Of a DNA stretch of 64,000 nt, positions 2,085 to 62,421 are shown piece by piece. The notes beneath the pieces were generated by a model. It saw only the letters and a list, made by a program, of their open reading frames with translations, had not been told where the DNA came from and ran no database searches. This stretch comes from a virus (lineage: Duplodnaviria; Heunggongvirae; Uroviricota; Caudoviricetes), in the IMG/VR virus record IMGVR_UViG_3300031555_002904; one strand, 5' to 3'. Every line of letters starts with the position of its first letter. The first letter of the stretch is position 1. The translations under genes and the position numbers were made by a program.

Positions 2085-2339
2085 TTAATTTTGATAGCCT
2101 AATGCACGTTTAAAGGCTTCGAACTCCTGGTCGAAATTAGAACCGCCCTATTGAGCGTAAATATTACGAACTACTTTCTCTAGTTCGTCGGTTCGACCTT
2201 GTTGAGCTAAATTTAGGAGATTTTTTCCGAGGGGATTGTTATAGGCTTGTCCTTGTAAAATTGATAACATCAACTGTTGAGGATTCCGCCCGGATTTAAT
2301 CATTTGAATTAAAACATTTGGGTCTACTGGATACATCAT
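2085..2339 (-). CDS. Small helical hypothetical protein (84 aa, table 15)
   Basis: The track ORF stops at TAG 2148-2150. Read-through gives ...RNIYAQ[Q]GGSNFDQEFEAFKRALGYQN-TAA (2085-2087), which fills the gap up to the next RBS. Confidence 0.75.
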
Positions 2340-2349
2340 TCATACCTCC

Positions 2350-2790
2350 TTAGAATGATAAAATTTCTACTTTCTGTTTCTGCGGGGCGGGTGCGGCCGG
2401 CTCGGTTGGCTTTTGAAGTGATTTAATATACTCCAAGACCCGCTCAAACTCTTCTCTCGTTACAAATTTCTCAACGGATGGCAATACAGCGCTCTCTTCT
2501 TTTTCAATGGGTAATTCCCTTAATTCATACATACATAATGTAGCGGTACCATCCATATTTATTTGTTTTGTGTAGATTCGTTTGTTCGCCAAATCTGGAA
2601 AATAGAATACAGAACCATCGAAGTCAATAGAGGTTGCACGGGCCTCTTCCAATGAACTAACCAAACGGCCTTTCAGTCCTGTTTGCGGCGGCGCCTGTCG
2701 TAAATAGGGCATCTAGTACATTGATTGCTATTGGGTGACTTGTGGAGTCTGTGTAGGTTGCTGTGGATAATAATTATAGTTGGAATACAT
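2350..2790 (-). CDS. Hypothetical protein (146 aa, table 15) with a Q/Y/P low-complexity N-terminus
   Basis: ATG at 2788-2790 follows GAAAGGAG. Reads MYSNYNYYPQQPTQTPQVTQ[Q]QSMY[Q]MPYLRQ... with two in-frame TAGs, then joins track ORF 2350..2712; TAA stop. Confidence 0.8.
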
Positions 2791-2835
2791 ATGTAAGGTC
2801 TCCTTTCCATACAAAAAATTTTCATTATCCATCCC

Positions 2836-2883
2836 CTCATAGTATAGTGAAAATTAGGACCGAAAAATTAATCTAAATTGACC
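2836..2883 (-). promoter_or_regulatory. Putative promoter of the accessory operon (GGTC-N41-GAG element with TATACT -10-like hexamer)
   Basis: Minus strand reads TTGGTC...TTTTCACTATACTATGAG. The same architecture recurs upstream of six other genes (see findings). Confidence 0.45.
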
Positions 2884-3013
2884 AACCGGGGACCGAGACG
2901 AGTTCCCACTAGGACCTCGAGAATGCCATTTTAGGAGGGAATAAAGATTATTTTTGTGTTGGGACAATTCTTTTTGAGGACCTCTATTGGCGGGAAATAG
3001 GAAGAAAAAAGTC

Positions 3014-3058
3014 AAAAAAAAATACCTGAAAGATACTTTTTTAAGCATCTTTCAGGTA
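3014..3058 (-). terminator. Rho-independent terminator after the tail-fibre module
   Basis: Inverted repeat TACCTGAAAGAT / ATCTTTCAGGTA followed by T9 on the minus strand, just after the TAA at 3072. Confidence 0.85.
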
Positions 3059-3071
3059 TACAATTAATTAG

Positions 3072-6000
3072 TTAACTATATTTAAAATAAACTGAACCAG
3101 CAGGAGCTGCACCAGATGGGGCTGCAGTACCATAGCCAGTCATACCGACAATTTGTAAGAATGTAGTACTTCCTTGAGTATTATTATTGATATATAATTT
3201 ACCGTTAGAAGCAAGACCTATTTGCGCTGCAACACGTCCACTCCAATGGAAACTTAAACGAGGAGCAACTCCCCAAGTATCAGATTGAGCGCCGCCAAAA
3301 CCGTATTCACGAATTTCAACTGCTGAATCACTATAAGCAGAAGTAGATGTTGAAGTACCTCTATTTGCAAATCTTGCGCCATAAGCAAATAAATCACCAT
3401 AGAAATTCCAATGTTGTTTATAATCTACCCAATTACCAGCGATATCGCAAGCTCTAAATTGAATAGTGTCACTAGAATCATTAGCGCCCATACCAGTGTA
3501 ATTACTACCAGGTTTATCCCACATAAAAGCAGCGCCATTACTAGTTTGTTTATATCTATAGCCAAAGATTGGTCCAATATTAACTAAAATACCAGCTTTA
3601 GTTAACGTTAAATTACTTCCAACACTATTATTATTTTCAATACAGAAATCTCCAACTGCACCATAAGTACTTCCAGCTGTTCCCCTACGACCGATTAACC
3701 AACCGCCATCATGAGTGCCTTCTACAGTATTCGTTCCAGAGAAGAATAAGTTAGACCATCCATTTGATGCAGGTAAAACACGAATACCTTCATTATAAGA
3801 AGAACCATTGCCTTTTACAACCAAACGACCATCAATATAAGTTGCACCAAAAATAGTAAATGGAAAAGCTGTTGCTGAAGTCTAAGCGCCATTTACAGAA
3901 GTTTGATTATTAGTTTTATTATAATAAATAATCCAACGTCCTTTTGCTTCATTATACAATCCTTGATGAGGGTCACTTGACATCAATGTCATATAACTAG
4001 TACTATTACCAAGAATAATGCCTTCATATCCACCTCTAACATTACCATACATCATAAAACCGCCATAACCTGTTACAGTATTTGGGTATAAATGATTACC
4101 ATAAGAAGCATTATACCAACCTGTTGCGCCACTTGAACGGAACCAATTAGAACAAGATACAGAGCCAGTTACTCCAGCATCATAGCCAGTATAAATTCTA
4201 TCGCCACCAACAATTGGAGCATATAATAAACCAGATTCAACATTAAATGACATACCTTTATCATAACTATTTTCAGTACGACTCGTAGTAGAACCAATCC
4301 AATAAAATTGTTTGCCTAATGTACCAAAACTAAACCACTTAGCAACATTAGCATGACTATTAGTTGCACGTATCCAAGGATTATAGCTGCCATCATTAGA
4401 ATAAGTATTTACATTATAAGCACCGTTATTATAACGCTAACCATCAATCCAAGAAGAAGGTACTGTTTCAGATAAGTAACGACCTGAAGAATATGTCATT
4501 CCAGCTACTTCTAGTTTATAACTGGGAGTACTACCATTAGCAATTAATTTACCAATCGCAACACAATTATTTTTAATTTGTAAACCGGGAGTTATTTTAG
4601 TCCATCTATCAGCAGCCATATTAGTAATAGTGTCTTCACCATTAACAAACATAAAACTCGTAACTACGTTTTTAGTAGTAAATAACATAGCTTCATTACC
4701 ACTTGTTTGATAACTAATTACACCATCATAATCACTATGTCCAGTGCGGAAATTTAAACTTGAAATATTTCCGCTCCAACTTAACGTTCCACTCATGGAA
4801 TCGCCAGTTACATTTACAAAACGGCTATCGGCTTCTGCTTCGGTGTAATATCGAGCATCTAACTTGGTAGTATAATTTTCATCAGTAATAAAATCATACC
4901 AGCCTTTAACGGTACTAGTATTACCCTCCATGCGGCGATATTTTGGAGGATCCCAAAATGGTATAGCAATAATCTAATGATAATAACTAGAGCCATCTCC
5001 ATGATTAGAAACTAAATAAGATGCCCATCCGCTATTGCCAGCGAACTCTCCAGAAGTTTGAAACCAAGTAAAATTACCATTACCATAACCAGTACTTGCT
5101 AAGGCATTGGCAGTAGTTGCTGTTGTTGCATTACCACTTAAATTACCACTAAAAATTGGAGCAAATAATGTTCCAGTAGAAGTTTGAATTGTAAATCTAT
5201 CATCATAAGCAGGTCGACCTGTTGTATTATTATCATAACAAAACCAAATGCGTCTTTTAGTCGTACTACTAGAAGCTAAATCATTTGTAGTAATCGGAGT
5301 TAAAGCACTAGCTGTTGTAGCATTACCACTTAAAGCTCCATAAAAGGTTGTGGCATACATGGAACCCCATTTATTACCAGAAGTACCAACACTACCAGTG
5401 TTAGTTGTCTATGGATAAAAATAATTGGAGGTATTAAGAGTTACTCCATTCGTGGTGGTTGCATTATCTGCATTCGTATGAAATCTAATATTACTGTCTG
5501 CACCGAGAATTAAATCCTCAGTAGAAGTAACTTTTAGTTTTGTTGAATATAAAGTACTAGCAGCCTCACCAGCTCCAATATAAGTAGTGCCGCCAGCACC
5601 AATAACTAAGCTATGTCCATAATTTGTTCCGTCATCATATATTGCCATTGGAGTAGAAGTATAATTTGTGGTTTTATATGACACTAAGCCAGTCATTGTT
5701 CCGCCTGATAATTTTAAATATCTTCCATCGACAATGCTTGTCCAGTTTCCAGAATCAAGAATAGTTTTCCAACTACCAAAAGTTGCAGAATTATAAGCAT
5801 TGCGCATATATAAATTTCCAGTTGTGCCACCGAAACCTAACTAGGTAGCGTAATTACCAGTATGAGTATGTAAGTGAATAAGTCCCCATGCATTGTTCAT
5901 GCCAGAGGGTTTCACAGATGTTGTAATATTTCCACCTGTTGTACTAACCGTATGTACATAAGATGGAGTATTAACAACTTCAGTAGATGATATTGCAGTA

Positions 6001-6599
6001 TTACTATTGTAATATCTTAAGAATCCAGTAGAATCAATATTATCTAAAGTGTTTGCATTACCAGCAGAAGTTGCATAATTAGCGCTGGTAGCATTGCCAT
6101 TAAAAGTTGTTGCCACAAGAGTAACTCCTGCAGTTCCGCCTTTACCATTACCAAAATTATAAGTAGTAATATTACCATCAGTTGCTCCACTTGCAGTTCG
6201 ATAGTTAATCCAAATGGCTCCAGAATAAGCCGGAGATGCAAATGTATATTCATTTGTAGAATGAATCATATCATTATAAGATTTTAACTTCGCATAAGTA
6301 GAAGTGATAGTACTTCCATTTGCATCAGCGGTTGCTTTTGCGGCAAGACCACTAATACTAATAGGCCAAGTTCCAGAAGCATTAAGTCTAATTACATTAG
6401 CTGTATTCGTGGGACTAGACCAAACAACATTGCCACCATCAGCAAAAGCTTTAATACCTAAAAAATAAGGTAAAGATGTAGATTCTTCAGTTGAACTATC
6501 TACTGCAATACCGCCAAAGGCTCTTAATAATTGAGAAGAAGTTATCTCATTTAAAAAATTAGCTTTTCCAAGGACGAGTAAATCATTTACTTGTGCCAT
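3072..6599 (-). CDS. Tail fibre / receptor-binding protein (1175 aa, table 15)
   Basis: Six track ORFs share one frame and are separated only by five TAGs (5841, 5409, 4974, 4437, 3882); TAA stop. Repeated F.G.LSGNATTA motifs and W..ILDSGN joints are typical of phage fibres. N-terminus MAQVNDLLVLGKANFL. Confidence 0.85.
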
Positions 6600-6618
6600 T
6601 TAAATACTCCTTTCTCTC

Positions 6619-9045
6619 TTAAATTTCATATATCTTAAATGCTTGTAAATATTCTTTATCAAGCATACTAGTTTTTGTTAAGTTGGGTAATGTATCAATT
6701 CTTACCCACAATTCTGTTTCAGTTTGTGAAGTGCCATCTGCGGCAGGAATAAATTTAGTACTATCCCAAGCAGATTTCTGTCCAATAGGAGCAAACCAAG
6801 TTGAGCCAGTGTCACAGTTATAGACGCAAGCTGAACCATGTTTACGAATGCCTGCATTATGATTATTCCATGCTGTTGTAATAGCAGTAAAACCAGTTAC
6901 AGTACTTGCATTTGGAGAGCTTGTTTGTGTCCATCTATTATATAAAGAATTTGACAAAGACGGATAAGTTAACATAAACTCATATTTACCATCTACTTTA
7001 AAATGGTCTACTAAACCCATTCGACTAAAACGATTAGCCTAATTGCAAAAGGCAACTTCGCTAGCAGTAAACCAAGTTTTATCCGTAGTCACGTCAAGCC
7101 AATGAATACGTGCCCAAGCACTATTGTCGGATAGCACTTTAACTTTCATACCGCCAATATATCCAATTTCAGAAATGTCAGCAGCTTTTAACATACCCTA
7201 TTTAGTCATTTTAATATCAAAACTATCAGGCTCTTCAATAAATTCATAAGCCTATACAGAACCCTCTTTAGTTATTGACGCTGCAGTTTGATATAAGTCT
7301 TTAATATCAGTAGCAGACAATACAGAAGCATAAATTCTAAAATCTGACATTTTACCTTCCATCATTGTATCATCAGTTCTACTATCTTTACCAATATTAA
7401 AATCTCTTGTAAAACTTGAAGCAATATTAGTAAGAGCACCCGTATGAGTTTTTACTAAAGTTGCATTTTTATATATTTTAATACCAGTAGCAATATCTGT
7501 TGTAACAGTCCACATAGCCCATTCGTTATTAGTAATTGTACCTACTGATAAATCTGGACTACCATTCCAATATACTCGGAAAGATGTTACATTTTGTTCA
7601 ATATTAAAATTACTACCACTATAACCGCCAAAGTAAATACTTCTACTTGATGTATTTGATTCTTTTACCCAAAAATTAATAGTACACTTATCACTCAATA
7701 CTGCTTTCATTAAATCTTTAATTGGTAAATTAATGCCTGTGGTTGAACCATCAAACACAGAGCTTGCCGCATAGCGTGGAGTATCAGAGCTAAAAGTAAT
7801 ATTACCAACTGTTGTGCCATTACGACCATATCCACTACAATCATCAGCAGCATTAAAAAATGTTTCACTTAATGCTGGGCAATAAGGGGTAGCAATCGAA
7901 CCTTTTTCTAATTTTGGTAAAGCTATATCACATTTACCACCTGCCGCAAGTCTAAATAGCAAGGTTTTATTTGTAGTTGTTCCGCTTGCTGCAAAAGTCC
8001 AAGTTACTGTATATTTTTTCCATTGAGGAGTTAATGATAGAGGACAATTGCCATCACTGCCGCTTTTATTATGTCCTTCAGATGATTTAATATTAGAAAC
8101 TTGAACCACGCCAGATGTATTATTATAAAAGTACATAGTTAAAGTACTTGAAGTAGATGATTTAGCAAAGAAACTTGCTGTATATACTTCATTTATAGAA
8201 ACAGAGTGTCCTCCCCAAGAAGCAAAATCTTTATATCCAGTGCCTGCACTATTATCTGCACTACAGACAGGAAATCCATAGACCTTATCAAAAGAGGTTT
8301 GTCTATTTCCAATCGTATAAGAATTAGTTAATAAATTATTCGCATTTCCGCCATCTAATTTATAATGTAAAACTAAACCTTGACTTAATAATTTCACTTC
8401 TCTTTTGGATAAACATTCATCATATACTCGCACATCATTAATTTTACAGGCGGGTCTATATGACCCATTATTTGAATGCCCGACAGACCAATCAAATATA
8501 TTAAATTTATTTGCAGCAGATACATTCTCGCAAGTAAATTCCTTTTCGCAAATACCATCTACAAATAAACGATAAGTTTTAGTAGATTTCTTATAGGTTA
8601 AACATAAGTGATGCCAAGCTCCATAGATGTTTGTAGTTCCATAATATGAATAATATGTTCTTCCAGTAGAAGAAGAAGTATTACAACTCATATAACAAGT
8701 TGTATTACCACTATATTTTAAAGTAATTCCTGAACCACTACCTTTATCACTATTATGAGAATGATTATGATTCGTTAGAATTCCATTTGCAGAAGTAGCA
8801 TTACCAGGAGTGGTTGGATAACACCAACATGCCATAGTAAAATCTTTATTTAAATCAATTGTGGAATCACTAGTAATATGAGAAACTGTATTAATAGCTG
8901 TTCGTTGATAACAGCGCATATCTGTTTTTCCACCACTGGTGGCAGCTGCAACACCGCCACCAGTAGTATTTAAACTAAATTTTATTGGAGAAGAACCATA
9001 GTTTTCTAAATTACCATGTAATGGTAACCATATTAATAAACTCAT
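6619..9045 (-). CDS. LamG/concanavalin-like multi-domain tail spike / RBP hub, copy 2 (808 aa, table 15)
   Basis: Track ORFs 7252..9045 and 6619..7020 join through TAGs at 7252, 7198 and 7039. Two LamG-type domains (WHHLCLTY...LFVDG...INDVRVYDECLS; WAMWTVT...MSDFRIYASVLS) flank a CBM-like domain (YTASFFAK...WKKYTVTW...PKLEKGSIATPY). Confidence 0.85.
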
Positions 9046-9060
9046 ATATTAATCTCCTCC

Positions 9061-11313
9061 TTAAATAAATATAAAATCTAAACTTTCATCGGTACTATTA
9101 TACACAAATTTTACCTTAGAGTCAACTGTAATCGCTCCGTTGATAGATGTATCACCTTGCACATGGAAAGCTCCTGTGGGGGCAGCAGTTGAATTAATAG
9201 CAACCTTAGTAGCATTTGCATAATGATTGCCGCCAGAAGTCATTCTGACTGAACCGTTGTAAGCCTCAGTATAAACCAAACGTCCACTCACTAAGTTGGT
9301 ATTACCAGTACCACCTTTTGAAGGTTCAAGACAGGTAATTGCGGTCGCGACACCAGAAGCAGCAATATAAACGGGAACACTAGCATTACCTGCGGCTGTA
9401 TCAGCGGTATGTACCACCAATTCACCACTAGTTTCAGGATGCGTAACATCATAATTGGTTGTACCATTATAGTAACGCCAAACTGCTCTATGTGTTCTAT
9501 CAGCTGGTGTTAAATATAGAGTACTTCTAATACCAGAAGCACTACCTAAAGTAATACCTGCATATCCGTTAGCTGCAGGTGCAACAACAATACCTTCATC
9601 ATCACCAGAGCCATAAGGTCTACCACTAACGATAAGACCTCCGTTTAGGGTAGTAACTTTTGATACAGTTAAAGTATTTGATAATGAAGCAGCTCCAGTT
9701 ACAGATAAAGTATTACTTAAAGTTGTGGCGCCAGTAATGGCTAAAGTACTTAATCCTTTAATAGAGCCAGTAACTTGTAAATTACCACCGATATTCACAT
9801 CAGAAGCAAAAGAAGAAGCTGTGCCTACGTCTAAGCCACTAGGGAATTTAGATTTACTATTTAAATATAAAACAATCTAATTTGTGGTGGAAGAAGTAGT
9901 TGGATTAATAACTAATGCATTATCATTAGAAGATAATACGACATGATTTTCACTTGGTGTACCAAACACTAATTGAGTTGTATTACCAGTACTAGAACTA
10001 GCGTGAGAGCCTGTTAAATAAACATGACCTTTTGCATTTAGAATTCCTTTTACAGTGGTGCCAGTTGCATTAACCTATAACCAAGTATTTTCTTCTTCCC
10101 AACCAGTACCAACATACCAATAATTTAAAGTTCCTCCTGCGCCATAGGCACCCATTTCTGCTTTTACGCTTGCAGTATCACTAGATGTATTTTTCTATTT
10201 CCAATCAATATATCGTGCCCATCCACCGCTTTTTGTAACTTCAGTAGTAATACTTCCACTAGTATTCATTGTTAATTTATTTTCACTGGTTTGAATAACT
10301 AGAGGGCCAGACATGGTATCGCCTGTTTTTAAAACATATTTACCATTATAATGACCATCAAGATAATTAGTAAAATTATCTTCATCAAGAATAACTCTCC
10401 AATCTTGCCAAGTACCATTATTTTTACCACGAACCGCAAGTTGACCAGTGCGATAGTCTTGATAAATTTGAGTAATCCAAGAGTCGTTATATTTATTTAC
10501 AATAGCTACACCATCACTAATACCAAGAATACCAGAAGTATCATTAACATACCAAATACCAGTATTAGTGGCACTGCCAATCGCAATTCCTGTTGTAGCT
10601 GTTACATTAGTGCCAGCCATACGATAAGTAGTAGGCTATGGAATTCCATCAGTAGTAAAATAAACTGGTCTATCAGTACTACCACCTGATTTGGTTAAAC
10701 GATTAGCTTTATCAGCAACACCAATTAGATTACCTGTAACATCACCAGTTACATTACCAACAACATTGCCAGTTAAATTTCCAATAAAACCGCCAGTAGA
10801 AGTTACAGTTCCAGACACAGATAGTGAGCCAGAAGCGTTACCATTTACAATATATAAGTTAGCCCAACGCAAACTAGAAGTACCAAGGCTCTTTTTGTTA
10901 GTCTCACTTGGAACAACATTACCGCCAGAAGTAATAGTACTGGCAGTTGTTAAGCCATTTAGTTTACTTGTTGTGCCATTTAAATAATAAGATGTTGAGC
11001 CTAAATAAATATCACTACCAAACAAAGATTTTTTAGCTACATAAATACCGCCAGTTACTTGAATTGCTCCAGAACTTGCGGCTGTCGCTTCTGCACTGCC
11101 AGTAACAATAACTGCTGTTGATGCTCTTAGGTTTGCACCATATATATTTAACCAAGCGTTATCTGCTGTACCTAAATTATAGGTTAAGGTTTCTCCTGGT
11201 ATAATAACATCATAAGCAATTGCACCTTTATTTAGAAGTACATCTTCATTATATGTAGATACTCCAAGAAAACGAGAAGGCCCATTAACAATTAAATCTC
11301 TTAATTGTGCCAC
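9061..11313 (-). CDS. Tail fibre protein (750 aa, table 15)
   Basis: GTG start after AAGGAG. Three track ORFs join through TAGs at 10636, 10195, 10075 and 9877; TAA stop. GNLTGNVVGNVTGDVTGN repeats and a QIYQDYRTGQLAVRGKNNGTWQDWRVILD fibre-joint motif. Confidence 0.85.
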
Positions 11314-11348
11314 AATTTTTCACTCCTTTTCTTCAAAATCTATATATC

Positions 11349-11386
11349 AAAAAAAAATAGGGGTGAGGATAAATCCTCACCCCTAT
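11349..11386 (-). terminator. Rho-independent terminator
   Basis: ATAGGGGTGAGGAT / ATCCTCACCCCTAT stem followed by a T-run on the minus strand. Confidence 0.85.
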
Positions 11387-11392
11387 GAATTA

Positions 11393-11614
11393 TTAGAGTG
11401 CAATTCCGTTGATGCCCTCTAAGGCTTTATCCTTGAAATTATCAAAGTCTAATTCAACAACTTCTTTGTTACCATTATAACCATCCAAGTCAATAATAGT
11501 CATGTTGAAATATACCTCAGCACCAGAATAACTTGCGCTCATATTTGCGACTACAACATCGTCAACTACGCTAGCGCCATTAAAGTTGACATTCATATTG
11601 TCCATTCTTAACAT
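11393..11614 (-). CDS. Small acidic protein (73 aa), possibly a fibre chaperone or accessory protein
   Basis: GAAAGGAG RBS, TAA stop, located between fibre genes. Function inferred from position only. Confidence 0.7.
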   Translation of the reverse strand: MLRMDNMNVNFNGASVVDDVVVANMSASYSGAEVYFNMTIIDLDGYNGNKEVVELDFDNFKDKALEGINGIAL

Positions 11615-11703
11615 AATTGTAATCTCCTTTTCAATTCAATTTTGAGATTTATTCTCAATAATAATGATGTTTATTTCATGAACTTTAATCTTATTAGTCC
11701 AAG

Positions 11704-14121
11704 TTAAAATTCATAATAGTTTTGAGTTTCAATAGAGTCGATTAAAAAGCTTGTTCTTTTATCTAACTTTACATACACATCTAAAGACCCTTTAATAGTT
11801 TTTTTACCAAATCCAGGAATGCCTCCATTATAAGCGGTCCAGCATCCCACTGCATTCCACCAATTTCCAGTAGAGGTTGAAATTGCCCAATGAGTATTAC
11901 CCGAGCATTTTACTAATCCTCCACTCATATTAGAAATGTTTTTAAATCCTGTTACAGAAGTTGTATTGTTTGGATTATTTGTTTGAATCCATCTATATAC
12001 AGTACCTGCATCATCATCAGGTTGCAAAACTAAAAATTCAAATGCACCATCAGCTCCTCTTAACTATTCAGTTAAATAAAGCCTACTATATAAGTCTTCT
12101 TCTGTATGATTGGCGGCATTAGATGGTGTAAAATACTTAGTACCAGCTCTATTATTATGATGTAAAATTTGTACCCACAAATCACCATCATATCTCATTA
12201 TCTTATTAATATTATACTCAATAAAATTCTCAAAGTCAACTACTCCTTCTTTAAAGACTGAGTTGTCGCCCTCTTCAGTGAACTCATAAGCATAAACATT
12301 ACCACCATTATCTACAGTGGCACCATTTAAATATAATTCTTTAATCTATAGTTCATCTAGTGCTGTAGCATAAATTCTAACATCACTAGTATATAATTTA
12401 CTATTACCATATGTAGTACCATTATAATTACCAACCAATAAATTACCAGTACCACCGGATAAAGTACCTGCGGCCGCAGTAGATGTTAAAGGTATTCCAT
12501 CAACATATCTACGAATAGTTGTTCCATCAAATGTAGATGTAATCATATGCCATTTCCCATCAATAGTAGTACCATTTGTTGTTACGCACTAGCGAGTTCC
12601 ACTAATAACATATCCAGCGCGGAATTTACCAGTCGTTCCCTCCAATGAAAATTCATAATTAGCACTACCAAAGCTTAATGGAATATGATAATTACTATAT
12701 CCTGCGTTACTACCTTTAACCCAGCAACTCATAGTTATACTATCTTTTGGAAATATCATAGTATCACTTGCAATATAATTACTACGACCATCTGTGATGT
12801 ATGCAGAATATTTATTGCGACTAGAATCTGGCATCATCGATACTGCTCCTACTACACGACCGTGATGTCCAAAACCCGAACAGTCATAGACCTTAGAAGC
12901 TTCTCTACTACCAGAAACATAATCTGTTGCATGGTCATTAATTTCTAACTAAATATTTCTTACATAAGCAGTTCCTTCAATACCATAATGACCATACATA
13001 TATACTGCTCCCACATTAGAACTATCACCGTCTTGTCCAAGAGTCCAAGTGTATGAATATTTTTTCCAAGTTGTAGTTAAGCTCTACTAATGTTGTCCAT
13101 CATGGAAGTTATTTGAAGTTGCTCCATTTTTTCTATAATATAAACCAAACTGTACTGTTTTACCTTTTATATCACTTTTAGCTTCAAAAGAAATAGTATA
13201 TTTATTACCTTTACCAATCGCCTACGCTAAATTAACAGTACCCCATGAAGAAATTCCTAACCAACGGCCTTTATAATTATATGCTGAATTTAAATTTGGA
13301 AACACCATTGTAGGCACGTCATCTATAACATTCCAATAGGCATGATAACCAATTGTTGGTGAATCAACACCACTGTTATACCCTGCAGTAAATCCAGATA
13401 CATTAATAGCATTTGGATGTAAAGAAGAGTCCCATCCAGCACTTACTCTACTACCAGGGGTTGGATACAATAAATAATTAGTTGTGCTTTGTAAAGTACT
13501 ATCTCGTAAAGGATAATGAAGCATTAGACCTCTACTTAATTCATCAATTTCTTTTAGACAAAGTGGATGGTCATATAATCTAAAATCATTCATTTTTGCT
13601 GTTCCACTAATACTAATGGTACCAGGGCGTAATGTAAAATTATAATCAGCGCTATTGTATTGATGTTTTAAAGCTCCATTTACAAATACTTTTACCTATA
13701 CACCGAAATCTCCATTATTAACATTAATAACATAATGATTCCAGGTTCCAAGCTCCCATACTCCAGAAGTAGAACGAGTATCATAAATCCAAATCATTTG
13801 AGGTTTGTTATTATTGCAATGTAATTTAATAGCATAATTGGAAGTATAATCCATTTTTGCCATATTAAAAATATCATCAATACCTGTGTTAGTAATAGGA
13901 AATTTAATATTATAGCTATCTCCATTGGCAATATTCCACCAGAAACTACAACAAAAACCATCTGTTGAATTTAATTCTGCGGCAGTTCCTTGAATGGTGC
14001 CACTAGCGCAATAGCCCAACTTACCTTGAGTGTAAGAAACATTTGAGCTTTTAAAACGAATAGTATTTAATCCTTGGTTATTAATATGATTATTTAATGG
14101 TAACCATACTTGTAAACTCAT
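11704..14121 (-). CDS. LamG/concanavalin-like multi-domain tail spike / RBP hub, copy 1 (805 aa, table 15)
   Basis: Five track ORFs lie in one frame, joined by eight TAGs (13696, 13222, tandem 13084/13087, 12949, 12589, 12346, ~12064). Same start motif (MSLQVWLPL vs MSLLIWLPL), domain order and length as 6619..9045. RNI[Q]LE matches the typical IQLE motif of this CBM-like domain. Confidence 0.85.
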
Positions 14122-14133
14122 ATTGCCACCACC

Positions 14134-15018
14134 TTATGCGAATACAAAATTAAAACATTCTTTTGTATCATCATATTGAATTTTACCAGCTTTTTTAAAT
14201 TGAATAGCTCCTCCGTCAACACGCATATTCATTGTGGCGGTAATACCACCAATAACTTCTAATGAACCGACAGATTGGTCACTAGAAGAATTATAATATG
14301 CATCAATACCACCAACAATCTAAAATCCACCATTAAATTTTGCAGTACCATTAATAGTAAGACCATCATTGAAAGTTTTATGGCCTCCAATGGTTTGAAT
14401 ATCATTAGTAATAATACCAGAAGCAGTAGTTGAAGCAGAAGGAATAACTGCATCAAAATTTGTTCCATTTAATGCAAATCTAAATGTGGGACCTGCAGTT
14501 GTACCTGCAATCCAAGAAACTGCGGGAGCCGCAAATGCGGGAGTTCCATTACCACCGACTAAGATAGCAGATTTTGCGCCTTTTGCCGTTACTTTGAAAG
14601 CATTAGTTCCATTACCATATAAAATACCACCAGCTGTTGCAGTAGTAATACCGGTACCACCAACATTGACAGGCAATGTTCCAAATTGAGGTGTTAAATT
14701 TGTTCCAGTAGAATAAAAAGCACCTTTTGCACTTGCAACACTAGCAATACCATTTAAAGTAGTATTCTGAATTAAAACTGCATTTGCGGGAGTATTCTTT
14801 GATAAATCAACACCAGTACCACCGTGGTGATAACCTAACATCTATGGAATAATATTCAAAAAGTTAACGCCATCATCAAATAATAAATAAGCAGAATAAT
14901 CTTCATTAGTTGCAAGATAAAGGGTACCAGCTTCGTGTTTCAAATGATTTGCATTTGAATTATCAAACTTACCTGAAGCATATTGACCCTACTTAAACTG
15001 TAAAGCTAAATCAGCCAC
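14134..15018 (-). CDS. Short tail fibre / adaptor protein (294 aa, table 15)
   Basis: GTG start after GAAAGGAGG. Reads MADLALQFK[Q]GQY...GTLYLATNE; TAGs at ~14989, 14842 and 14320; TAA at 14134. GGTG repeats typical of fibres. Confidence 0.8.
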
Positions 15019-15724: not shown

Positions 15725-15745
15725 TTTACCTCTCCTTTCAAGTTA

Positions 15746-17677: not shown

Positions 17678-17707
17678 TTCTAAATATCATCCTTTCTTTA
17701 AATTTGC

Positions 17708-17731
17708 GAGGGAGAGATTACTCTCTCCCTC
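17708..17731 (-). promoter_or_regulatory. Stem-loop without a U-tract in the 5' leader of 15746..17677
   Basis: GAGGGAGAG / CTCTCCCTC stem followed by GCAAATTT rather than a T-run. Confidence 0.45.
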
Positions 17732-17763
17732 TATTATTTTGATAATTTAATTAAATAATTAAA

Positions 17764-52700: not shown

Positions 52701-55700
52701 CTTCATAAGCACTTTTTGCATTTTGTGCCGCTTGTGCAGTTTTTTCAGTGGCTTCTTGTGCACTCTTCAGCTATCCTTCTGGAGAATTTGCTGCTATCGC
52801 AGAACCTAAAGCAATAAAAATTGCAATCAATGCTGTTACTGCTAAAATAATCCAACCAATTGAACCTAACGCAGCGGTCATACCCGCACTCGCAGTTGCA
52901 CCTGCTGTTGCTGCAGTAGTACCAAACATTGTCATTAAAGTTGATGCAACTGGTAAAATACCGATTACAACACTGATTACTGCACTAATTTTATCCCAAG
53001 CTGTTGCATCAGGATTATTAAAAACATCAATAGCTCCCTATACTGAACTGATTGCAGAGCCTAGTCCCATAATTAAATCAGTAGTATTAGTAATCTAATC
53101 GGCCCAATCTGTTAAACCGCTCTTATTAAAAGATTCATTTAAACCTTCTTCACTACCGCCAACATTTAAATTAGCGTTTTCGCTATCCATTTGTTTCTAA
53201 GCAGCTTGCTTAGAACGAAGATAATCTTCTCCTCCACGAGTTTTTGCATCTGCGCTTGTTTCTCCACCATAAGGCGTTCCTGCTGCATCCACTGTCAACA
53301 TTTGAGCCTAATCTTCAAGAACTGAAGTAATACCGCCTTCCTCTTCACTAGATAGCTATCCTAAAATTTCTTCAAGACGTTCAGCACTAGCAGTAGTACT
53401 ATTTAATTCTTGTGTCATATTTTCTAAATCTGCAATTCTACCATCTAATACACTATCAGATTTACCCAAAGCAGCTAATGCAGCCTATAATTCTTTAGCT
53501 TCAGCAGCTGTCGCAGCAAGCTTTTGTTTTAATGTATCCTATACTTTACCTAATCCAGTATCGGCAGTTTTATAAACTTCATTACCATTATCGTCTTTAG
53601 TTTTTACTGAAAGTTTAGAAGCAGTTTCTCTTAAATCTTTGGCACGGACTTCCGTCATAGCACCTTTATCCACTGCTTTTCCAATATTTTCAATTTTTTC
53701 GCTAGCCTATCTTTCAGCATCTCTCATTGCTTCATCTAGCTCAGACTTCATAGCTTCACCATATGCCTAAGCAGCTTCTTCTCCAGCAGCTTTAACTTTA
53801 TCAAAAATAGCTTTCGCCATTTCATCTCTACTGTCGGCCGCCTCTCTTAATCCAGCTAAAAATTCTCCTCGAACAGCATCAGCTGTTACTGTTTCACCAG
53901 AATCTACTACCCTCTACCGAGCCTAAGCATATTGCTAATTAATATAATCTCCCTACTCACCAAATCGATGATGTTTTGTCTTTCTGTGATTTGCTCCATA
54001 ATCTATTACATCGTCAAAGGCTTGAGATATTGCGTCATTTCGTTTTTGATTTTCTTCACCCTAATGTTTCTTCTAAAAATCTTCCTTGGCCTTATCTCTA
54101 GCCTCAATTTTCTCATAGGCTTTTGCTAAATCTCGAGCGTCTTCAACTTCTTCCCTTGCTGCATCCGCTGCTTTACCAGCAGCAATTGCTCTCTTATCCA
54201 TTGCTCGTACTAAATCCATTTGAACTTGAAGCTATTTAAGCTCTTCTTCAGTTACGCGACCAGCAGCTGCACGTAGCTATTCTTGCATACGAATTTCTCT
54301 ATCAAGAGAAGCATTTTCTGCATCGCCTTCACGACCACGCATATTAGATTTTAAGTTACGAATACCCTCAAGAGCATCTTCTTTAGTCTTTTCATGTTCT
54401 TTTTTACCCGCTGGAGTAAATTGCTTAATACTATAAGCAGCATTTCTTAAACCCTAAGCAATTTCTTTATGGAAAACTTTTGTGGCAATAGCTCCAATAG
54501 TTGCTAGAACGCCACCTAAACCTCCAAAAGCATCAACTAAACTACCTACTCCATCAATAACATGGCTTAAACCATCTAAAAAACCAATGAAAAAATCGTC
54601 ATCTAAAATTTTAGTATATAAATTTTCTGCTGCTGCTGTTACTCTGTCTCGAGCAGCCTCCCAGCTTTCAGCATAAATCTCAGCTTGTTTATTAAGTTCT
54701 CCATCCGCTGCGCCAGCAGTTGCAAGATTTTCTTCCATAAAATCCCAATTATCCATCAAAGTAACCATTTGGTTATATTGACGAACACCAGCAACAGTTT
54801 GAGCCAATGCCAACTATTGGTCTTTATTTAAAGTTACCCATTTTGCGGCCATTTCTTCAAGAATACTATCCATATTCTTCAATTCGCCAGTTTGGTCAAA
54901 AATACTAATACCGACTTTTTGCAAAGCTTCAGAGTATTTATTTAAAGTAGTACCATCTTCAAGGGTGTCTCCTTGCTTTAAACCTTGAATACGTGCAAAG
55001 ATTGTTTTTAATGCTGTACCAACAACTTCTTCACTTTCACGAGATGTTGCAGTAATTGTTGCCAAAGCAGATGCAGCATATTCATAACTCAAACCAATAG
55101 TATCTGCAATACCGGCAAATTTCTCTAATCCACCAGCAATTTCATCAGTGCTAGACGCAGTTGCAGCACCTAATTTTGTTAATACATCGGCATAATGTTC
55201 ATAAGCAACATCGCCTTCTTTGTTAAAATTATTCCAAATAGCAGTTAATTGATTAGAAACAACATCTGCGCTTTGTCCAGTTACATTTGCCATTTTTGCA
55301 GTAACAGCAGCTTTTTGCATAGCTTCAGATTGAGTATCACCCTATTGGAAATAGATTAAAGAAGCTTTAGCATATTCATTAGTTGTTGTACTTAATGCCC
55401 GCGCTGCCTTATTTGCCTTAGCTGCAAATGCATCCATTTCAGCAACACTAGCACCAGTAACAATGCGAATATCATTTAAAGATTTATTTAAATCTTGAGC
55501 ATATCCATAAGCAGACTATACGGTTCCCATAAAACCATGTAAAATACTAGAAGATAACTGCCATCTTGCAGTATTTGCTAATGTAGTACCAAGCTCTCTA
55601 ACCCTTTGACTGCATCTAATTAAAGGAGCTTCTGCCTATAAAACAGACTAAGCTAAATTCGTAAATGCTTGACGACCGGCCGGACCAAGAGCATTTAATT

Positions 55701-55989
55701 GATTAGCATATTGCTGAAGAGAAACTCCGCCTTTTTTTAAGGAATCAGAAAATTGACCTAAATCTAATTTTCCTGTTTTTAAATTTGTAGCCGCTTCTAG
55801 TTTAGCCTATAACTCTCCTGCTGCGGTCATAGCTCTTTGAATTTCAGGTGTAATTTGTGAAATTCCACTATTTTTCAATGCAGAACCAGTAGCCAATCCA
55901 TTAAGCTCTTTTTGCAAATTTTTAATTGCGGCAATAGCCTCATTCGTATTCGCAGTAAAAGCTAAACTAACATTAAGATTTTTTGCCAT
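46714..55989 (-). CDS. Tail tape measure protein (3091 aa, table 15)
   Basis: Eight track ORFs lie in one frame; the gaps contain TAG only (about 50 counted). TP901-type TMP core ([Q]SAYGYAQDLNKSLNDIRIVTG, ASLIYFQ[Q]G, GTALKTIFARIQ, KDQ[Q]LALAQTVAGVRQY). Hydrophobic TM block near 52780-53000, long helical Ala/Glu-rich body, C-terminal FATGGYTG motif, TAA stop. Confidence 0.9.
47270..47350 (-). repeat. Pro-Glu low-complexity linker in the tape measure C-terminus
   Basis: TPDPEPEPEEPVPEPEPEPEE. Confidence 0.85.
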
Positions 55990-56030
55990 ACAAATTTTTA
56001 TCTCCTTTCTCTCCTAATTTTTTATTTTGC

Positions 56031-56728: not shown

Positions 56729-57898
56729 TTATACATTAAACTTTATATTGATTGGAGCTAAATTTAAGTTTTTACGCACAGTATTATAAGCTTCAGTCTC
56801 CATAAAAGATTCGCTTTTAGCAACATCATTGCTACTAGTAGTTTTTAAAGACTTATACATTATATTAGCTAAAGACTTAGGTTTTAATCTTGGATTTTCA
56901 TGCATTCTTTCCATTCTTTTAATAAGTCTATTAATTAAACTCTCAAGTCTTGTTAATGCTAATTCAAAGTTTTTACCTGAATCTGCTAATGTTGATTTAA
57001 TCTAAATATTATAAATTACGGCTCCAGACTCATCAATAACAACAACGTCTCCTCCTGTCAACCAACTAGCTGAGTTTAATGATGCTAATAACCAAGGCTA
57101 TACTACTTGTGGAGAACTAAAAATCCCTGAAAATCCACCGTGGTCATCTATTTTTAAATTTACAAGCTAATTACTATTAACAGCACTAGCAGACATTAAA
57201 CCAAATAATTGTTTATTGTATTGAGCCACATGATTCATAAAAGCATCTAACTATTTACCTTCGGCATTGCCCTAAGAAGCAAAAATAATTTCTCCATAAC
57301 TACGTCCAGTAAAAGATTCATGTCTAGACTAATACAAAGGAGATTTTGAAGAAATTGTTTTATGTAATAATTGAGCATCTGTATTATTCATTTTATAGCC
57401 AGAAAGTTGATTACACATATCACTATAATGTCGTCTAAAAAAATTCTAAATCTCTTGAGCGGCCGCATATGCAGCTAAATCTTTATCCAAAGAACCAACT
57501 GCCGTATTTAATTGAGTTTTAGTAACATTAATACCACCCTCAGTCATTACACTTGCTTCTTCTATATTCTAGGACCAAGTCAATTCTTTTTCTCCAAATT
57601 TAGTAATAGCAATTAAGGTAACAGCATTATTACCAAAATATTTTTTTTGAATCTATTCCCATCTTTCATATATCTTTTTTGCACTATAAGATGACTGACG
57701 TCTCATAGCATTTTTCCATACTCCTGGATGAGACTGACTCTCTCTTAATTCCATAGTATACATTTGAGATATTTCATCTTTTAATATTACTAAATCGTGA
57801 TAAAATTCTTGATTTTTTTCATTATACCATTCTTCAAATATTTGAATAAAAGTATCTTTATCCAATAAATGTCCACCAAAAATAATACCTTCAGCCAT
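56729..57898 (-). CDS. Hypothetical protein (389 aa, table 15) with a possible PD-(D/E)XK nuclease-like motif
   Basis: Only two short fragments appear in the track. Nine in-frame TAGs join them into one ORF (AAGGAGG RBS, TAA stop). Contains TGGDVVVIDESGAVIYNI[Q]IKST (D...Q-x-K). Confidence 0.7.
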
Positions 57899-57981: not shown

Positions 57982-58986
57982 TTATTCCTCAGTTGCAAAA
58001 CCTGCAAAGGGACGAGTACCAGCTACCATGCCATTGAAGTCAATAGTATCAGTAGAATGAGTGCTTACACGGTCGATAGCGCTATCGGTATCAGCAGATT
58101 CAATAATCTGAATAGCTGCCAGAACCTTCTTAGTGCGGTCGAAACGAGTATAATCTGGGAATGCATCCATAGTGAAAGTGAAAGTGGATGGGTCGCCAGA
58201 AGATGCCATAGTGAAAGTAAAGTTAGACTGAATCTTGCAGTTAGGAATTACGAACTCTGCAGGCATATCAACACCCTCAGTATTACGGAACAGAGTAGAA
58301 GCCTCTAGGTAATAGTTACCACCGAACTTGTCGGGAGTGATATCAATCTGCTGTGCCATAGACTTACGAGCAACATAGTAGTCAACCAATACAACACAAC
58401 CAGCATAGAAAGGACTCAAATCGTTAGCACGAGCCTGCTGATTAACCTCACTACGAGCTTCATCAGTCCAAGTTTCAGTTAACTTAATTACATTGCCTTC
58501 AACAGAACTAGGAATGAAAGGCTCAGTAACGATTTCACCATTCTGCATTAACATAACATAAATGAAATCTTCACCATAGCCACTCTTACCCAACTCAGGT
58601 ACATAAGGAGCTTCCTGTAGAGTAATAGTTACTTCACCATCGCCAACAACAACAGCATCAGTCTGCTCAGTAGTATGAACCATAATGGGCTTAGCATCAC
58701 TAGCCTCAATCAAACCTGCGCCAGATAGAATCATGAAGCCAGCGGGAGAGATTAGAGCATCTTCCATAGTGAAAGTAATGGTACGCTCACCTTCCCAAGC
58801 CATCAAACGAGAGTTACCACGGCCGCCCTGTGCATAAACGGTAGTAGCAGCACCCTCCATGCTAGAAGTCTTCAGAGTATCAAAATAGATAACAGGTTCG
58901 TTCTTATAGAAAATCTTGTTACCAACCTTCTGGTTAGCCTTTGCCTTTAAGACAACATCACAAATTTCGCGAACGCCAAATTTCAT
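57982..58986 (-). CDS. Major tail (tube) protein (334 aa)
   Basis: Start MKFGVREICDVVLK after AAGGAGG (the track start at 59034 lies in the upstream gene). AQGGRGNSRLMAWEG and FTMASSGDPSTFTFTMD resemble tube proteins. High-expression codon style, followed by a terminator, no TAG. Confidence 0.75.
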   Translation of the reverse strand: MKFGVREICDVVLKAKANQKVGNKIFYKNEPVIYFDTLKTSSMEGAATTVYAQGGRGNSRLMAWEGERTITFTMEDALISPAGFMILSGAGLIEASDAKPIMVHTTEQTDAVVVGDGEVTITLQEAPYVPELGKSGYGEDFIYVMLMQNGEIVTEPFIPSSVEGNVIKLTETWTDEARSEVNQQARANDLSPFYAGCVVLVDYYVARKSMAQQIDITPDKFGGNYYLEASTLFRNTEGVDMPAEFVIPNCKIQSNFTFTMASSGDPSTFTFTMDAFPDYTRFDRTKKVLAAIQIIESADTDSAIDRVSTHSTDTIDFNGMVAGTRPFAGFATEE

Positions 58987-59012
58987 GGTTTGTATCCTCC
59001 TTAAAATTTTAG

Positions 59013-59735
59013 TTAGTGAATATTTTTCATCCAATTGTCAGGTTGATTGTCGGGTTTGCCTCCAGCCAAACGACAACGGACGTCCATATCCCAATTAATA
59101 TATAGCATATATCTTTCAACTAAGTCATATAATTGGAACATGGTTAAATCCATTAGCTCCTACATAGGAATATGTAATCCCACTGTAAGTATTGAAAGAT
59201 ACTGGCTAAATATACTGATATTACTTTGACCCTTTTCAGCAGCAACCTTAGCTCGTCCTCGCATAAGTTTTTCTGCTATCTCTCGAGCTTTAGCATTTGC
59301 TGGATTAAAACTCTACTAATCCATAGGGCCAGTTTTCAGACAACAGATATTTGTCAACGCTGCTTGTAATGACTCAAAATTCTTTTCATCAATTTGAATT
59401 GTCATTCCATCTCCACTAAGTAGCACAGAGCGTGGAGTCATCATTACTTTATATTTTGGAAATATTAAAGTAAAGACTTGCTGCACCGCAAACTTTTTAT
59501 CTGCCGCTTCTTTTTCTGACATTATCGTCATAAATATTTGAAAATTATTTGTATCTCTTAAAAGAGATTCGTCCTTGATAAACATGGATTTATTTAAGCA
59601 CAAACACTAAATACCTGTAAAAAAATCTGCTTCCCCTATAAATGCAATCTCTTTGATGCGAGGTTGATGAATAACTAACTAACATTCAGGAACGGGATAA
59701 TCCGTTCCGCACATTAAAGATAATCGAGTATCCAT
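59013..59735 (-). CDS. Conserved tail-associated protein (240 aa, table 15)
   Basis: The ATG overlaps the upstream TGA. Five TAGs including a tandem pair (GPMD[QQ]SFNP at 59313-59318); TAA at 59013. Confidence 0.75.
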
Positions 59736-60319
59736 CAATTATTAAACATTGCATCAAAGTTTTTGATGAAGTCTTCTTCATCATTAGGATTAGGCATTTT
59801 CTTTTTATCCTCTTCTCCATGGATAGCTTGATACATTAAACACAATCCACCAAATTCATCCGTAAGAATCATTTGATTTGCGCCTAAAAATTCCAACTCA
59901 CCAATTCCAGTTAAATGTTTTCCATTGAACATAGAATCAATCTCTGCCGCAATCTTATAAGGACGCAACTCAAAGTCTTTCATTTTCCATTGGTCAAAAT
60001 GACAAATAATGTCAAACTCAATAATATTATCTCTAAACTCGGGATTCTTACGATTACCAGTAAAATTATCAAAACTAACAATAATATAATTCAATACTGA
60101 ACCATCAACAGTTAGCTTAGGTACAATCTTAATCTATTCACCAAATAAACCAAGAGTTTCATCCTCGGTTAAATTAGGCTTATTCATACAATCACGAGTT
60201 GTGTAGTATAACATTTTTTTCAGACGCTCATTTTTCATAATCATCTGAACAATCAAATTCATATCTTTTTCAGTAGACAAAAAACTTGATTTAGGATAAG
60301 AATAAACTTCTCTTTTCAT
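59735..60319 (-). CDS. Probable tail terminator / neck protein (194 aa, table 15)
   Basis: Two track ORFs join through TAG 60134 (LFGE[Q]IKIVPK); TGA stop. Function is positional. Confidence 0.65.
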
Positions 60320-60346
60320 ATCTATATCTCCTTTATCACTTAATTA

Positions 60347-61564
60347 TTAAAATAAAGACTCAACAACAATTGTTTTACTATAATCTCCATATAGTAATTC
60401 AAATTGTCCACTATAAGAACTAACCCATCGAACAGATACTCGTCTTGGGTCAGTTGGGTCAGGAATTAATTCAACAGGATATTTCTTGTCGACATACCAT
60501 TCATCAGCTTTTGTACCATTAAATTCATAATCATACAATTTCTTAACCTTAATAAATGTTTCTCCAATAATATCCATTTCATCAACAGTTCCTTCATTTG
60601 GGTCTTTAATTGGTTCAATTAAACCACCAACGATACCAGCATCTACATCATCCTCAGTTTCATTAGCATAATACTCTACTGCGATAACTTCCAAGATTCC
60701 AGGAGTCGAAATCCAATCAGAAGCTTCAACACGCCAACAAGTATCATCGCCTTGAAGATAAAACTTACTATATCGTTTAAAATAATTCATTGTGTATTCA
60801 TTTTTTGGCATTAAAATACTCAATGAGTGATTAGGAGTGTCAACACTAATTCCATGTTTTTGAATGAAGTTAATTTTAGTTTCCACTGGACCGCGCACGG
60901 CCGCATATGTGGTATGAATACCATCTTCATCCTCCCAAGCAATCTAATAAGAGCACTTGCGAATATCACCACGGAAATAAGCTAATTCAGTTAAATCTTG
61001 TAAATAAACTAACCAGTGAGTTTTTGTACCTAACCACTCAAACACATCGCCGCATTTGAAATTATATTCAAAACCCACAGAAATGATTTTATCATCATAG
61101 TCTTGTTTTAGTTTATTTGGATTAATAAGTGCGCGAACTGGCTTGCGGTTCTCCGCATCCACTCGCACGACCTCAGCAGCCTGATAAGAATTCCAAACTG
61201 CATGGTCTAAAGAACGACGCTTGTCTTTAATCATACGTTCTTGCTGTCTGTTACCGCCCGCCTGACGAAAACGAGTAGCTTGTTCCCAAATACCAGTAAT
61301 TTTGGGGTCTAGTTGCGTCAATACGATACCAGCCTCATCAATTTTATCTTGTGACAACAAATTCTCAATCTTTTGGATTGTTACAGTATCTAAATCAATG
61401 TTCATATTTTTAATTACTTTCATCAATTCTTCTACACGATTTTGCTATTCAAGTTGTTCGGCAGTAGAACCAGCTGGGTCAAACGGTCTTTTATCGTAAA
61501 CTCCTAATCGACCTTTCATTAATCTAAAAGGGACACGGCTACTTAAATCATAACCTGATGCCAT
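60347..61564 (-). CDS. Probable head-closure / neck protein (405 aa, table 15)
   Basis: ATG at 61562-61564; TAGs at ~61445 and 60944 join two track ORFs; TAA stop. Function is positional. Confidence 0.65.
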
Positions 61565-61856
61565 GGCTTAACTCCTACAAAAGACTAATGCTTTCAAACA
61601 CAGTCTTGCGGTATAGTTCAAAATTCGTCTCTTGAGCTTTCAGTCCCTCTAATTTACATAGCAGCTGTAAAAATTGCGGGTTCATGAATACTTCATTCAT
61701 GCCCGCAATTTCTAAAATAACTGTATCTAATTGTTTAGGCCAATCTTCTTCATGCTCGCGCATTGGAATTAATTTCCAAAGTTGGTTGGTTAAACGACGA
61801 ACATTTACATCAATGCTTCTATCATCAAAATCAAATCCATATTTAGTCAAGAGCAC
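61548..61856 (-). CDS. Small head-tail region protein (~102 aa, table 15)
   Basis: Read-through of TAG 61575 gives SISLL[Q]ELSHGIRL-TGA, overlapping the next start. Confidence 0.65.
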
Positions 61857-62421
61857 TAACCTCCATTAAGCTAGACCAGTTGCTCTTATAACCGCCTTCC
61901 GCAGGTTTTCTGCGTTTATATAAGCGTTGCATATGGAACGAATCTCTGCGAGCCTCAGTCAATAAAGACAATAGCTTAGATAAGTGGTTCGCTTGAGAAG
62001 TCATTTTAAAATCAGAGCCACTATATTTCATTCGAGTATTTTCGATAGAAGCAACCTGGCGCTGAACCCAACCTTGCTTCATTAAAAGCGCCAGGATGTT
62101 GATTTCTTCTTGAGTAAGCTCAACATTAAATCGAGACTTATCAACTAAAACATTTGGAGTCTACAATGTGTCACTTGGTAACTCTCCCCAAACAGTTCCC
62201 AATACAAAATCATCGGGAGTTAATTCATCCGCTCCCATAGTTCTAACTTCAATCGTATAATTGTATAAATCTTGACGAGGAAATTCAAAACCAGGAATTG
62301 CATTAATTAAAAGATTTTGCAAATCTTTTAAAGTATCTTCGGGAGTTAATTCCAAGTATAAATCATCGGTAACTTGTCCAAGAAAGCGATTATAAACAGC
62401 CGAAAATTGTGTCTCAGCCAT
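61843..62421 (-). CDS. Probable head-tail adaptor (192 aa, table 15)
   Basis: Track ORFs 62161..62421 and 61843..62082 join through TAG 62161; AAGGAGG RBS, TAA stop. Function is positional. Confidence 0.65.

Follow-up and report, generated by a model that had tools for sequence, protein, structure and literature searches.

Reassignment of the amber codon TAG to glutamine has been described repeatedly in gut phages (10.1101/2021.08.26.457843; PMC11210395), and the resulting genetic code 15 has been proven by proteomics (Peters et al., 2022; PMC9523058). The nearest published group to the phage described here is phAss-1, a set of human-gut siphophages for which the genus Phassvirus was proposed (Babkin et al., 2023; PMC10607447; GenBank OQ749652). 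Here, we describe TAG recoding in a stretch of 64,000 nucleotides (the window) from IMG/VR record IMGVR_UViG_3300031555_002904, a phage that very probably uses code 15 and translates every TAG as glutamine, as judged from its sequence and that of its relatives. The window corresponds, in reverse complement, to positions 32,412-96,411 of a linear 105,768-bp contig (G000; 56% complete by CheckV). The sequence occurs in sequencing runs of metagenomes from animal faeces or gut, and no RNA runs are listed among them.

Like this phage, the phAss-1 group has TAG-to-Gln recoding in its terminase, portal, tape measure and fibre genes (PMC10607447), and the tape measure proteins are alike in size, at about 3,100-3,200 amino acids (aa) and 3,091 aa here. 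The phAss-1 group carries tRNA arrays of 28-36 genes including a tRNA-Sup(CUA), large arrays are also present in the relatives of this phage, and both groups have standard-code relatives within the same broad group and no dedicated synthetase; in the contig, no synthetase gene turned up among the ~45 of 91 open reading frames (ORFs) scanned, in a scan that was not a dedicated synthetase search. The portal is 37% identical to that of phAss-1 over 88% of its length. Unlike phAss-1 (133-138 kb, human gut), the complete relatives here are 178-240 kb, and this phage comes from animal faeces. Megablast of 24 kb against GenBank phages found no nucleotide match, which excludes membership of the proposed genus Phassvirus, and the phage belongs to a different lineage of genus level or higher. 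It is a new lineage showing an already known phenomenon, with a mechanism that is ordinary for such phages.

Relatives for comparison comprised 80 IMG/VR loci found by a portal scan (52-76% identity) and four whole relatives (G001-G004), two of which (G002 and G003) use the standard code. When the longest ORFs of the window were called with TAG as a sense codon, the 33 gene frames (20,335 codons) held 132 in-frame TAG and no TAA or TGA, and the other two minus-strand frames of these genes held 885 and 2,654 TAA plus TGA. One of these TAGs (56014-56016) lies in the AGGAG ribosome-binding region, in the untranslated stretch upstream of the start ATG (55989) of the tape measure protein (TMP), so that the true count is 131 in-frame TAG in 20 of the 33 genes, which together make up about 70% of the window's gene codons. 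Three more TAGs, lacking homolog cover, may lie upstream of true starts (codons 7 and 15 of gene 30993-32180 and codon 10 of gene 14134-15018). The TMP frame itself has no TAA or TGA over ~3,100 codons, with 131 and 415 in its off-frames. TAG-TAG occurs in tandem at four sites (13084-13089, 51001-51006, 51670-51675 and 59313-59318, each reading CTACTA on the plus strand). All 33 genes terminate in TAA (26) or TGA (7) and none in TAG, which ends 6-17% of ORFs in standard-code relatives. In five genes a TAG falls close to the 3' end and homolog alignments continue beyond it, a comparison for which the contig's small unannotated ORFs are not judgeable; at codon 94 of the 102-aa gene, the relatives' column holds TAG 32 and Gln 13 and the alignments extend past it, and that TAG is therefore sense and not a terminator.

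An earlier note, made from the letters of this stretch, had counted about 130 in-frame TAGs splitting 20 genes, with fragments that always rejoin in frame, genes that all end in TAA or TGA, and tandem TAGs beginning at 13084, 51001, 51670 and 59313; the counts and all four positions proved right. Its estimate that standard-code annotation destroys about half of the genes was low, since 20 of 33 are destroyed. In the re-calling that the note had proposed as a check, coding density was compared for ORFs of at least 80 aa under table 11 and with TAG as sense, and with TGA as sense as the control. Table 11 gave 64 ORFs with a median of 165 aa, 75.2% cover and one ORF of at least 700 aa; with TAG as sense there were 34 ORFs, all on a single strand, with a median of 351 aa, 96.5% cover and nine ORFs of at least 700 aa, and the TGA control reached 76.9% cover. 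Across the whole contig coding density rose from 75.0% to 93.6%, while the same relaxation adds only ~1.5 points in G002 and G003. Annotation of this contig, and protein searches with it, must use code 15, as a table 11 annotation shatters those 20 genes, large tail proteins among them.

The field of short ORFs seen under table 11 is what true stops in decayed or fragmented genes would look like, as would TAGs made by assembly error or by C-to-T damage of CAG. We consider this extremely improbable, as the 131 in-frame TAGs stand against zero TAA or TGA, the fragments rejoin in frame to give proteins with end-to-end matches to phage families, dozens of relatives assembled independently have TAG in the same columns, and the Gln codons facing TAG are mostly CAA, two changes away from TAG. 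Matches to the TMP gene in Logan assemblies from three further faecal runs (X7, X8 and X9) contain 0 mismatches, and one assembly piece from an independent run spans the tandem TAG at 51001-51006. Because independent assemblies are letter-identical across the TAGs of the TMP, assembly error and DNA damage, which the note had named as possible refutations, are excluded.

The residue encoded by TAG was tallied with tblastn, using in-frame phage proteins with each TAG marked X as queries, which gave 102 TAG columns and 1,505 cells; six-frame ORF queries had produced spurious TAA and TGA columns with one-base-neighbour residues, and the main tally uses in-frame genes. The tally of homologs that the note had asked for shows enrichment for glutamine: the cells facing TAG are Gln 457, in-frame TAG 208, Glu 186, Lys 137 and Asn 104. 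Scored against empirical substitution profiles of the 20 amino acids from the same alignments, the log-likelihood was -2962 for Gln and -3978 for the runner-up Glu, with Tyr ~3400 below Gln. In a first tally over portal-anchored loci, the Gln codons facing TAG were CAA 298 and CAG 119, and since CAA exceeds CAG, the match is at the protein level and not that of a one-base neighbour. Conserved TAG columns are purely Gln and TAG (at position 118 of the terminase-like gene, Gln 61 and TAG 10), and column 44 of the 241-aa gene holds Gln 30, TAG 24 and Arg 1. In a dereplicated test on well-covered columns, Gln ranked first in 10 of 21 TAG columns (48%). For true Gln columns the figure was 63%, and for each of nine other residue types (E, K, N, T, S, D, R, A and Y) it did not exceed 2%. 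Reciprocally, in-frame TAGs of the relatives face 10% of this phage's Gln cells and at most 1% of the cells of any other residue. Within the window, the TAG at 38670-38672 (gene 38568-38936) aligns with Gln in the paralog at 38185-38553. The motifs from which the note had read glutamine are present (YFQXG and KDQXLAL in the TMP, RNIXLE, and IGEDXWI beside INTEQWI), apart from its poly-Q run, which is only a Q-rich TQXQS (gene 2350-2832).

A sense codon for another residue (Tyr, Glu, Lys or pyrrolysine) is also highly improbable. Many TAG columns are variable, with Glu or Lys commonest, yet true Gln columns spill over to Glu and Lys in the same way, all conserved TAG columns are Gln, and the log-likelihood of Gln is ahead of Glu by ~1000 and of Tyr by ~3400. 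The clade is not uniform, as one relative (G006, locus L066) has TAG facing Tyr together with a long-arm tRNA(CUA), but this phage lies far from L066 on the tree, in an all-Gln clade, and its closest relatives have short suppressor tRNAs with a Gln-like acceptor end. Pyrrolysine was considered because ARAGORN gives every tRNA(CUA) the default label 'Pyl', and was rejected on the alignment of TAG columns to Gln, with no search made for pyl genes.

Several results weigh against glutamine at every TAG. In the receptor-binding module (3072-15018), 23 TAG sites have no informative homologs: no related loci turned up when the 808-aa virion structural protein (6619-9045) served as the query, and paralog alignments within the module are only 24% identical and uninformative on the TAG residue. 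Glutamine is assigned at these sites because one tRNA is assumed to read every TAG. The suppressor tRNA of this phage is not seen in the ~56%-complete record. Likewise, neither a release-factor gene nor an antagonist of release factor 1 (RF1) was found that would account for RF1 being beaten at the 50 TAG sites of the TMP.

No tRNA gene was detected in the window or the 105.8-kb contig by ARAGORN (default and with introns) or with Rfam RF00005; a lowered ARAGORN threshold gave 54-329 calls that were noise only, and at the gathering threshold no Rfam family at all matched the whole contig. One tRNA(CUA) each was found in seven of seven TAG-to-Gln relatives examined (G001, G004, G005, G010, G011, G012 and G014), and in neither of the two standard-code relatives. 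The relatives, whose complete genomes measure 178-240 kb, have arrays of 25-40 tRNA genes (29-40 tRNAs in G001-G004). All five tRNA(CUA) with parsed acceptor ends are Gln-like (U1, unpaired 1-72, G73), including those of G001 and G004, at 74-75 nt, in which U1 and U72 oppose each other without pairing and G73 is the discriminator. Apart from the suppressors, tRNA-Gln and a single tRNA labelled Asn are the sole tRNAs of G001, G002 and G004 to combine U1 with G73; the aligned tRNA ends of G003 are not parseable in the same way. A weak 1-72 pair and G73 belong to the identity set of tRNA-Gln, and the suppressors' acceptor end, with U1, open 1-72 and G73, fits that set and predicts charging with glutamine. 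Separately, the 90-nt tRNA(CUA) of G010 (L164, complement 16283-16372) has a 7-nt extra-arm loop, CUUUGAA, that is a copy of the anticodon loop of tRNA-Gln(UUG).

Gene-by-gene synteny maps the contig to 42 kb-134.5 kb of G001, whose tRNA array lies at 9-28 kb with its tRNA(CUA) at 12.8 kb, and this synteny predicts an array beyond the contig's left end. We infer that the tRNA(CUA) of this phage lies in that part of the genome, in keeping with the earlier note, which had placed the tRNA outside the window. A search for a longer record by exact match to a 40-mer of the contig's left end found none, in results from which near-identical records may be missing. The note had also placed any synthetase or release-factor modulator outside the window; no gene with an RF-1 domain was present in the contig or in G001-G004.

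Glutamine could instead be inserted without a phage suppressor, by a host suppressor or by near-cognate tRNA-Gln(CUG) once RF1 is disabled. The lack of a tRNA in the 105.8-kb contig is compatible with this, as is the finding that Sup-CTA tRNAs occur in only ~52% of predicted code-15 phages (PMC11210395), but tRNA(CUA) follows the code of the relatives (seven of seven against none of two), the part of the genome missing here is where the closest relative has its array, and near-cognate reading could hardly pass 50 sites and tandem TAGs; we regard this as improbable. In the mechanism that we favor, the phage would supply a Gln-type tRNA(CUA) from its tRNA array, and a host enzyme would charge it with glutamine, either GlnRS or a non-discriminating GluRS followed by GatCAB. 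The suppressor would have to outcompete host RF1 strongly for the 50 TAGs of the TMP and the tandem TAGs to be read, and suppression would be near-complete, since even 0.98^50 yields only ~36% full-length TMP. Such a tRNA has a known counterpart in E. coli supE, the classical Gln-inserting amber suppressor, a tRNA-Gln with anticodon CUA that, like the relatives' tRNA(CUA), has a Gln-type acceptor end (U1, weak or open 1-72, G73); supE is charged by a host enzyme, as the relatives' tRNA would be. supE is a weak suppressor whose cell still uses TAG as a stop; unlike in the supE cell, TAG here appears fully reassigned and never needed as a terminator.

All gene-sized ORFs of the window (33 of 33) are on the minus strand, and the TAG-bearing genes run from 2085-2339 to 61843-62421, as the note had claimed. 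By family matches of the contig's proteins (a sigma-factor-like gene, a terminase-like gene, an HNH nuclease, portal, virion proteins and the TMP), this is a tailed phage with a long non-contractile tail, and giant tail proteins with SH3b and LRR domains are present; Pfam matched nothing among nine virion proteins. DNA polymerase, NrdD and guanylate kinase genes lie on the opposite strand at the contig end. The features are as follows, in window positions unless given for the contig:

253-2064: small TAG-free operon.
2085-2339, minus strand: 84-aa gene with 1 TAG, the first TAG-bearing gene of the window; the same column is TAG in the closest relative, G001.
2350-2832, minus strand: 160-aa Q-rich gene with 2 TAG.
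3072-6599, minus strand: 1,175-aa gene with 5 TAG.
6619-9045, minus strand: 808-aa virion structural protein (phrog_26670) with 3 TAG.
9061-11313, minus strand: 750-aa gene with 4 TAG.
11704-14121, minus strand: 805-aa gene with 8 TAG, including the tandem pair at 13084-13089.
14134-15018, minus strand: 294-aa fibre-like gene with 3 TAG.
15137-27896, minus strand: TAG-free block of 12.8 kb with four genes (573, 2,683, 643 and 195 aa), among them an LRR-bearing giant tail protein.
27914-29431, minus strand: 505-aa gene with 3 TAG.
30993-32180, minus strand: 395-aa gene with 5 TAG, the two closest to the 5' end without homolog cover.
32528-35185, minus strand: 885-aa tail protein (phrog_32343, phrog_1887) with 5 TAG.
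35160-38144, minus strand: 994-aa tail gene with 5 TAG.
38568-38936, minus strand: 122-aa gene with 1 TAG (38670-38672) and a TAG-free paralog at 38185-38553.
38946-46589, minus strand: 2,547-aa tail protein with SH3b domain and 17 TAG.
46714-55989, minus strand: TMP of 3,091 aa (phrog_4211, PF10145) with 50 TAG, start ATG at 55989 and tandem pairs at 51670-51675 and 51001-51006.
56729-57898, minus strand: 389-aa gene with 9 TAG, the highest TAG density of the window.
57982-59034, minus strand: 350-aa virion protein without TAG; its position makes it the probable major tail protein.
59013-59738, minus strand: 241-aa gene with 5 TAG, including the tandem pair at 59313-59318.
59735-60319, minus strand: 194-aa virion structural protein (phrog_6123) with 1 TAG.
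60347-61564, minus strand: 405-aa gene with 2 TAG.
61548-61856, minus strand: 102-aa gene with 1 TAG, at codon 94.
61843-62421, minus strand: 192-aa virion-module gene (phrog_3853) with 1 TAG, the last TAG-bearing gene of the window.
63156-64000, minus strand: TAG-free gene for the predicted major capsid protein, of which the window holds the C-terminal 280 codons of 370 aa, the start lying past the window end.
Contig G000 97729-98214, minus strand (locus L003): 161-aa replication-module gene with 3 TAG, which face Gln in three of four relatives.
Contig G000 102883-103452, minus strand (locus L003), outside the window: guanylate kinase (PF00625) with 4 TAG.

Between positions 55990 and 56075 of the window, a GC-rich hairpin with a T-run, which resembles a terminator, and then the AGGAG ribosome-binding site precede the TMP start.

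The recoding that the note had described throughout the structural region is present there, though not confined to it. Outside the window, the sigma-factor-like gene carries 4 TAG and the portal 3, with 3 and 1 in two genes located between them, and the HNH nuclease has a single TAG, which falls in a Gln/TAG column; the terminase-like gene also carries TAG, as do the guanylate kinase and replication-module genes listed above. TAG-free are the DNA polymerase, NrdD, the tail block at 15137-27896, the operon at 253-2064 and three virion genes with biased codon usage (63156-64000 and 57982-59034 in the window; 31242-33256 on contig G000). The TAG-free block may reflect module exchange with a standard-code lineage, as suggested by its 2,683-aa LRR protein, which has 42-43% identity over ~2,700 aa to proteins of standard-code G002 and G003 and 22% over 818 aa to G001.

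The three codon-biased genes are a 294-aa gene, the 370-aa capsid gene after it, and the 350-aa gene. They use CAG 11-12 times and CAA once, and AAG 14-22 times and AAA 0-3 times (CAG 11, CAA 1, AAG 22 and AAA 0 in the capsid gene; CAG 11, CAA 1, AAG 14 and AAA 3 in the 350-aa gene). The 370-aa protein is the predicted major capsid protein with an HK97 fold, as its AlphaFold model (predicted local distance difference test, pLDDT, of 70) matches only HK97-fold capsid and encapsulin structures. The 350-aa protein is probably the major tail (tail-tube) protein, by gene order only; its structure model (pLDDT 50) is too poor for a structure search, and PDB sequence searches with the capsid and tail-tube candidates found no match. 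In orthologs of the three genes from 41-56 recoded relatives, TAG/(TAG+Gln) is 0.01, and in neighbouring genes of the same relatives it is mostly 0.18-0.48, with 0.06 in the 227-aa gene after the capsid gene. Because it extends over 41-56 relatives, this avoidance of TAG is attributed to clade-wide selection and not to chance. Across the window, TAG-bearing genes have a CAG/(CAG+CAA) of 0.11 and TAG-free genes one of 0.43. Such CAG-poverty in TAG-bearing genes agrees with an origin of TAG in CAG codons that underwent a C-to-T change after a suppressor had been gained, and neutral transitions of this kind are the probable source of the TAG codons.

We infer that TAG is still a costly codon, because more than 40 recoded relatives exclude it from three genes, namely the capsid gene, its upstream neighbour and the one for the probable tail-tube protein. 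Reassignment would be genome-wide, with TAG staying a slower or riskier codon that is acceptable in low-copy proteins but selected out of high-copy ones; in this genome TAG is dense in low-copy proteins such as the TMP. Code-15 crAss-like, Lak, Garnet, Topaz and some Agate phages are like this phage in their Gln-reassigned stop and suppressor tRNA, in code states that flip among close relatives, and in a TAG-free subset of genes that suggests a standard-code host. Unlike in those phages, there is no clean early/late split here: the late capsid and probable tail-tube genes exclude TAG, the sigma-factor-like, guanylate kinase and replication-module genes use it, and no RF2 gene was found. The picture of TAG as a late-gene lock (Borges et al.; 10.1101/2021.08.26.457843) thus fits only partly, as some non-structural genes need the suppressor and the most abundant late proteins do not. 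The clade-wide avoidance suggests that a reassigned stop remains costly to decode and that this decoding may tune how much protein is made. We put forward only tentatively, and as the less probable view, that TAG could act as a graded brake on protein dosage beyond an on/off late-gene lock, and that the clade described below, with four codes among close relatives, could serve as a natural experiment.

A tree of portal and terminase-like proteins (58 rows) places this phage in a fully supported clade of 20, every member of which is TAG-to-Gln, and requires at least 5 changes of code state. The relatives, with portals 52-76% identical, span the standard code, TAG-to-Gln, TGA-to-Trp and TAG-to-Tyr. 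Standard-code members have no in-frame TAG over 16-18 thousand aligned codons. In-frame TGA faces Trp in L054 (record G007), L072, L073 and L078, with 29 such cells in G007, pointing to code 4 in these relatives; no tRNA(UCA) was detected in the 36%-complete G007 fragment. In G006 (IMGVR_UViG_3300028591_000104; 150 kb, 93% complete), 56 in-frame TAGs align not with Gln but with Tyr (46 cells) and Phe (9) of standard-code relatives. The tRNA(CUA) of G006 (G006:42607-42697) is 91 nt long with a long arm, C1-G72 and A73, and its extra-arm loop AGUAGCUAA contains GUA, the Tyr anticodon. No published report of TAG-to-Tyr in phages was found, and Borges et al. saw only Gln and Trp reassignments (10.1101/2021.08.26.457843). 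A phage group with four codes and large tRNA arrays is a good system in which to study code change over short evolutionary distances.

The arrays also hold other elements. That of G001 contains a full-length ROOL RNA (RF03087, 323 bits; L114:16959-17584, minus strand) and a partial OLE-like match (L114:11294-11383, minus strand), and that of G006 a tmRNA gene (L151:8982-9352, plus strand). Standard-code G003 carries a tRNA with anticodon UUA, of ochre-suppressor type (G003:123974-124046, locus L137), and has no in-frame TAA or TAG over 16,500 aligned codons.

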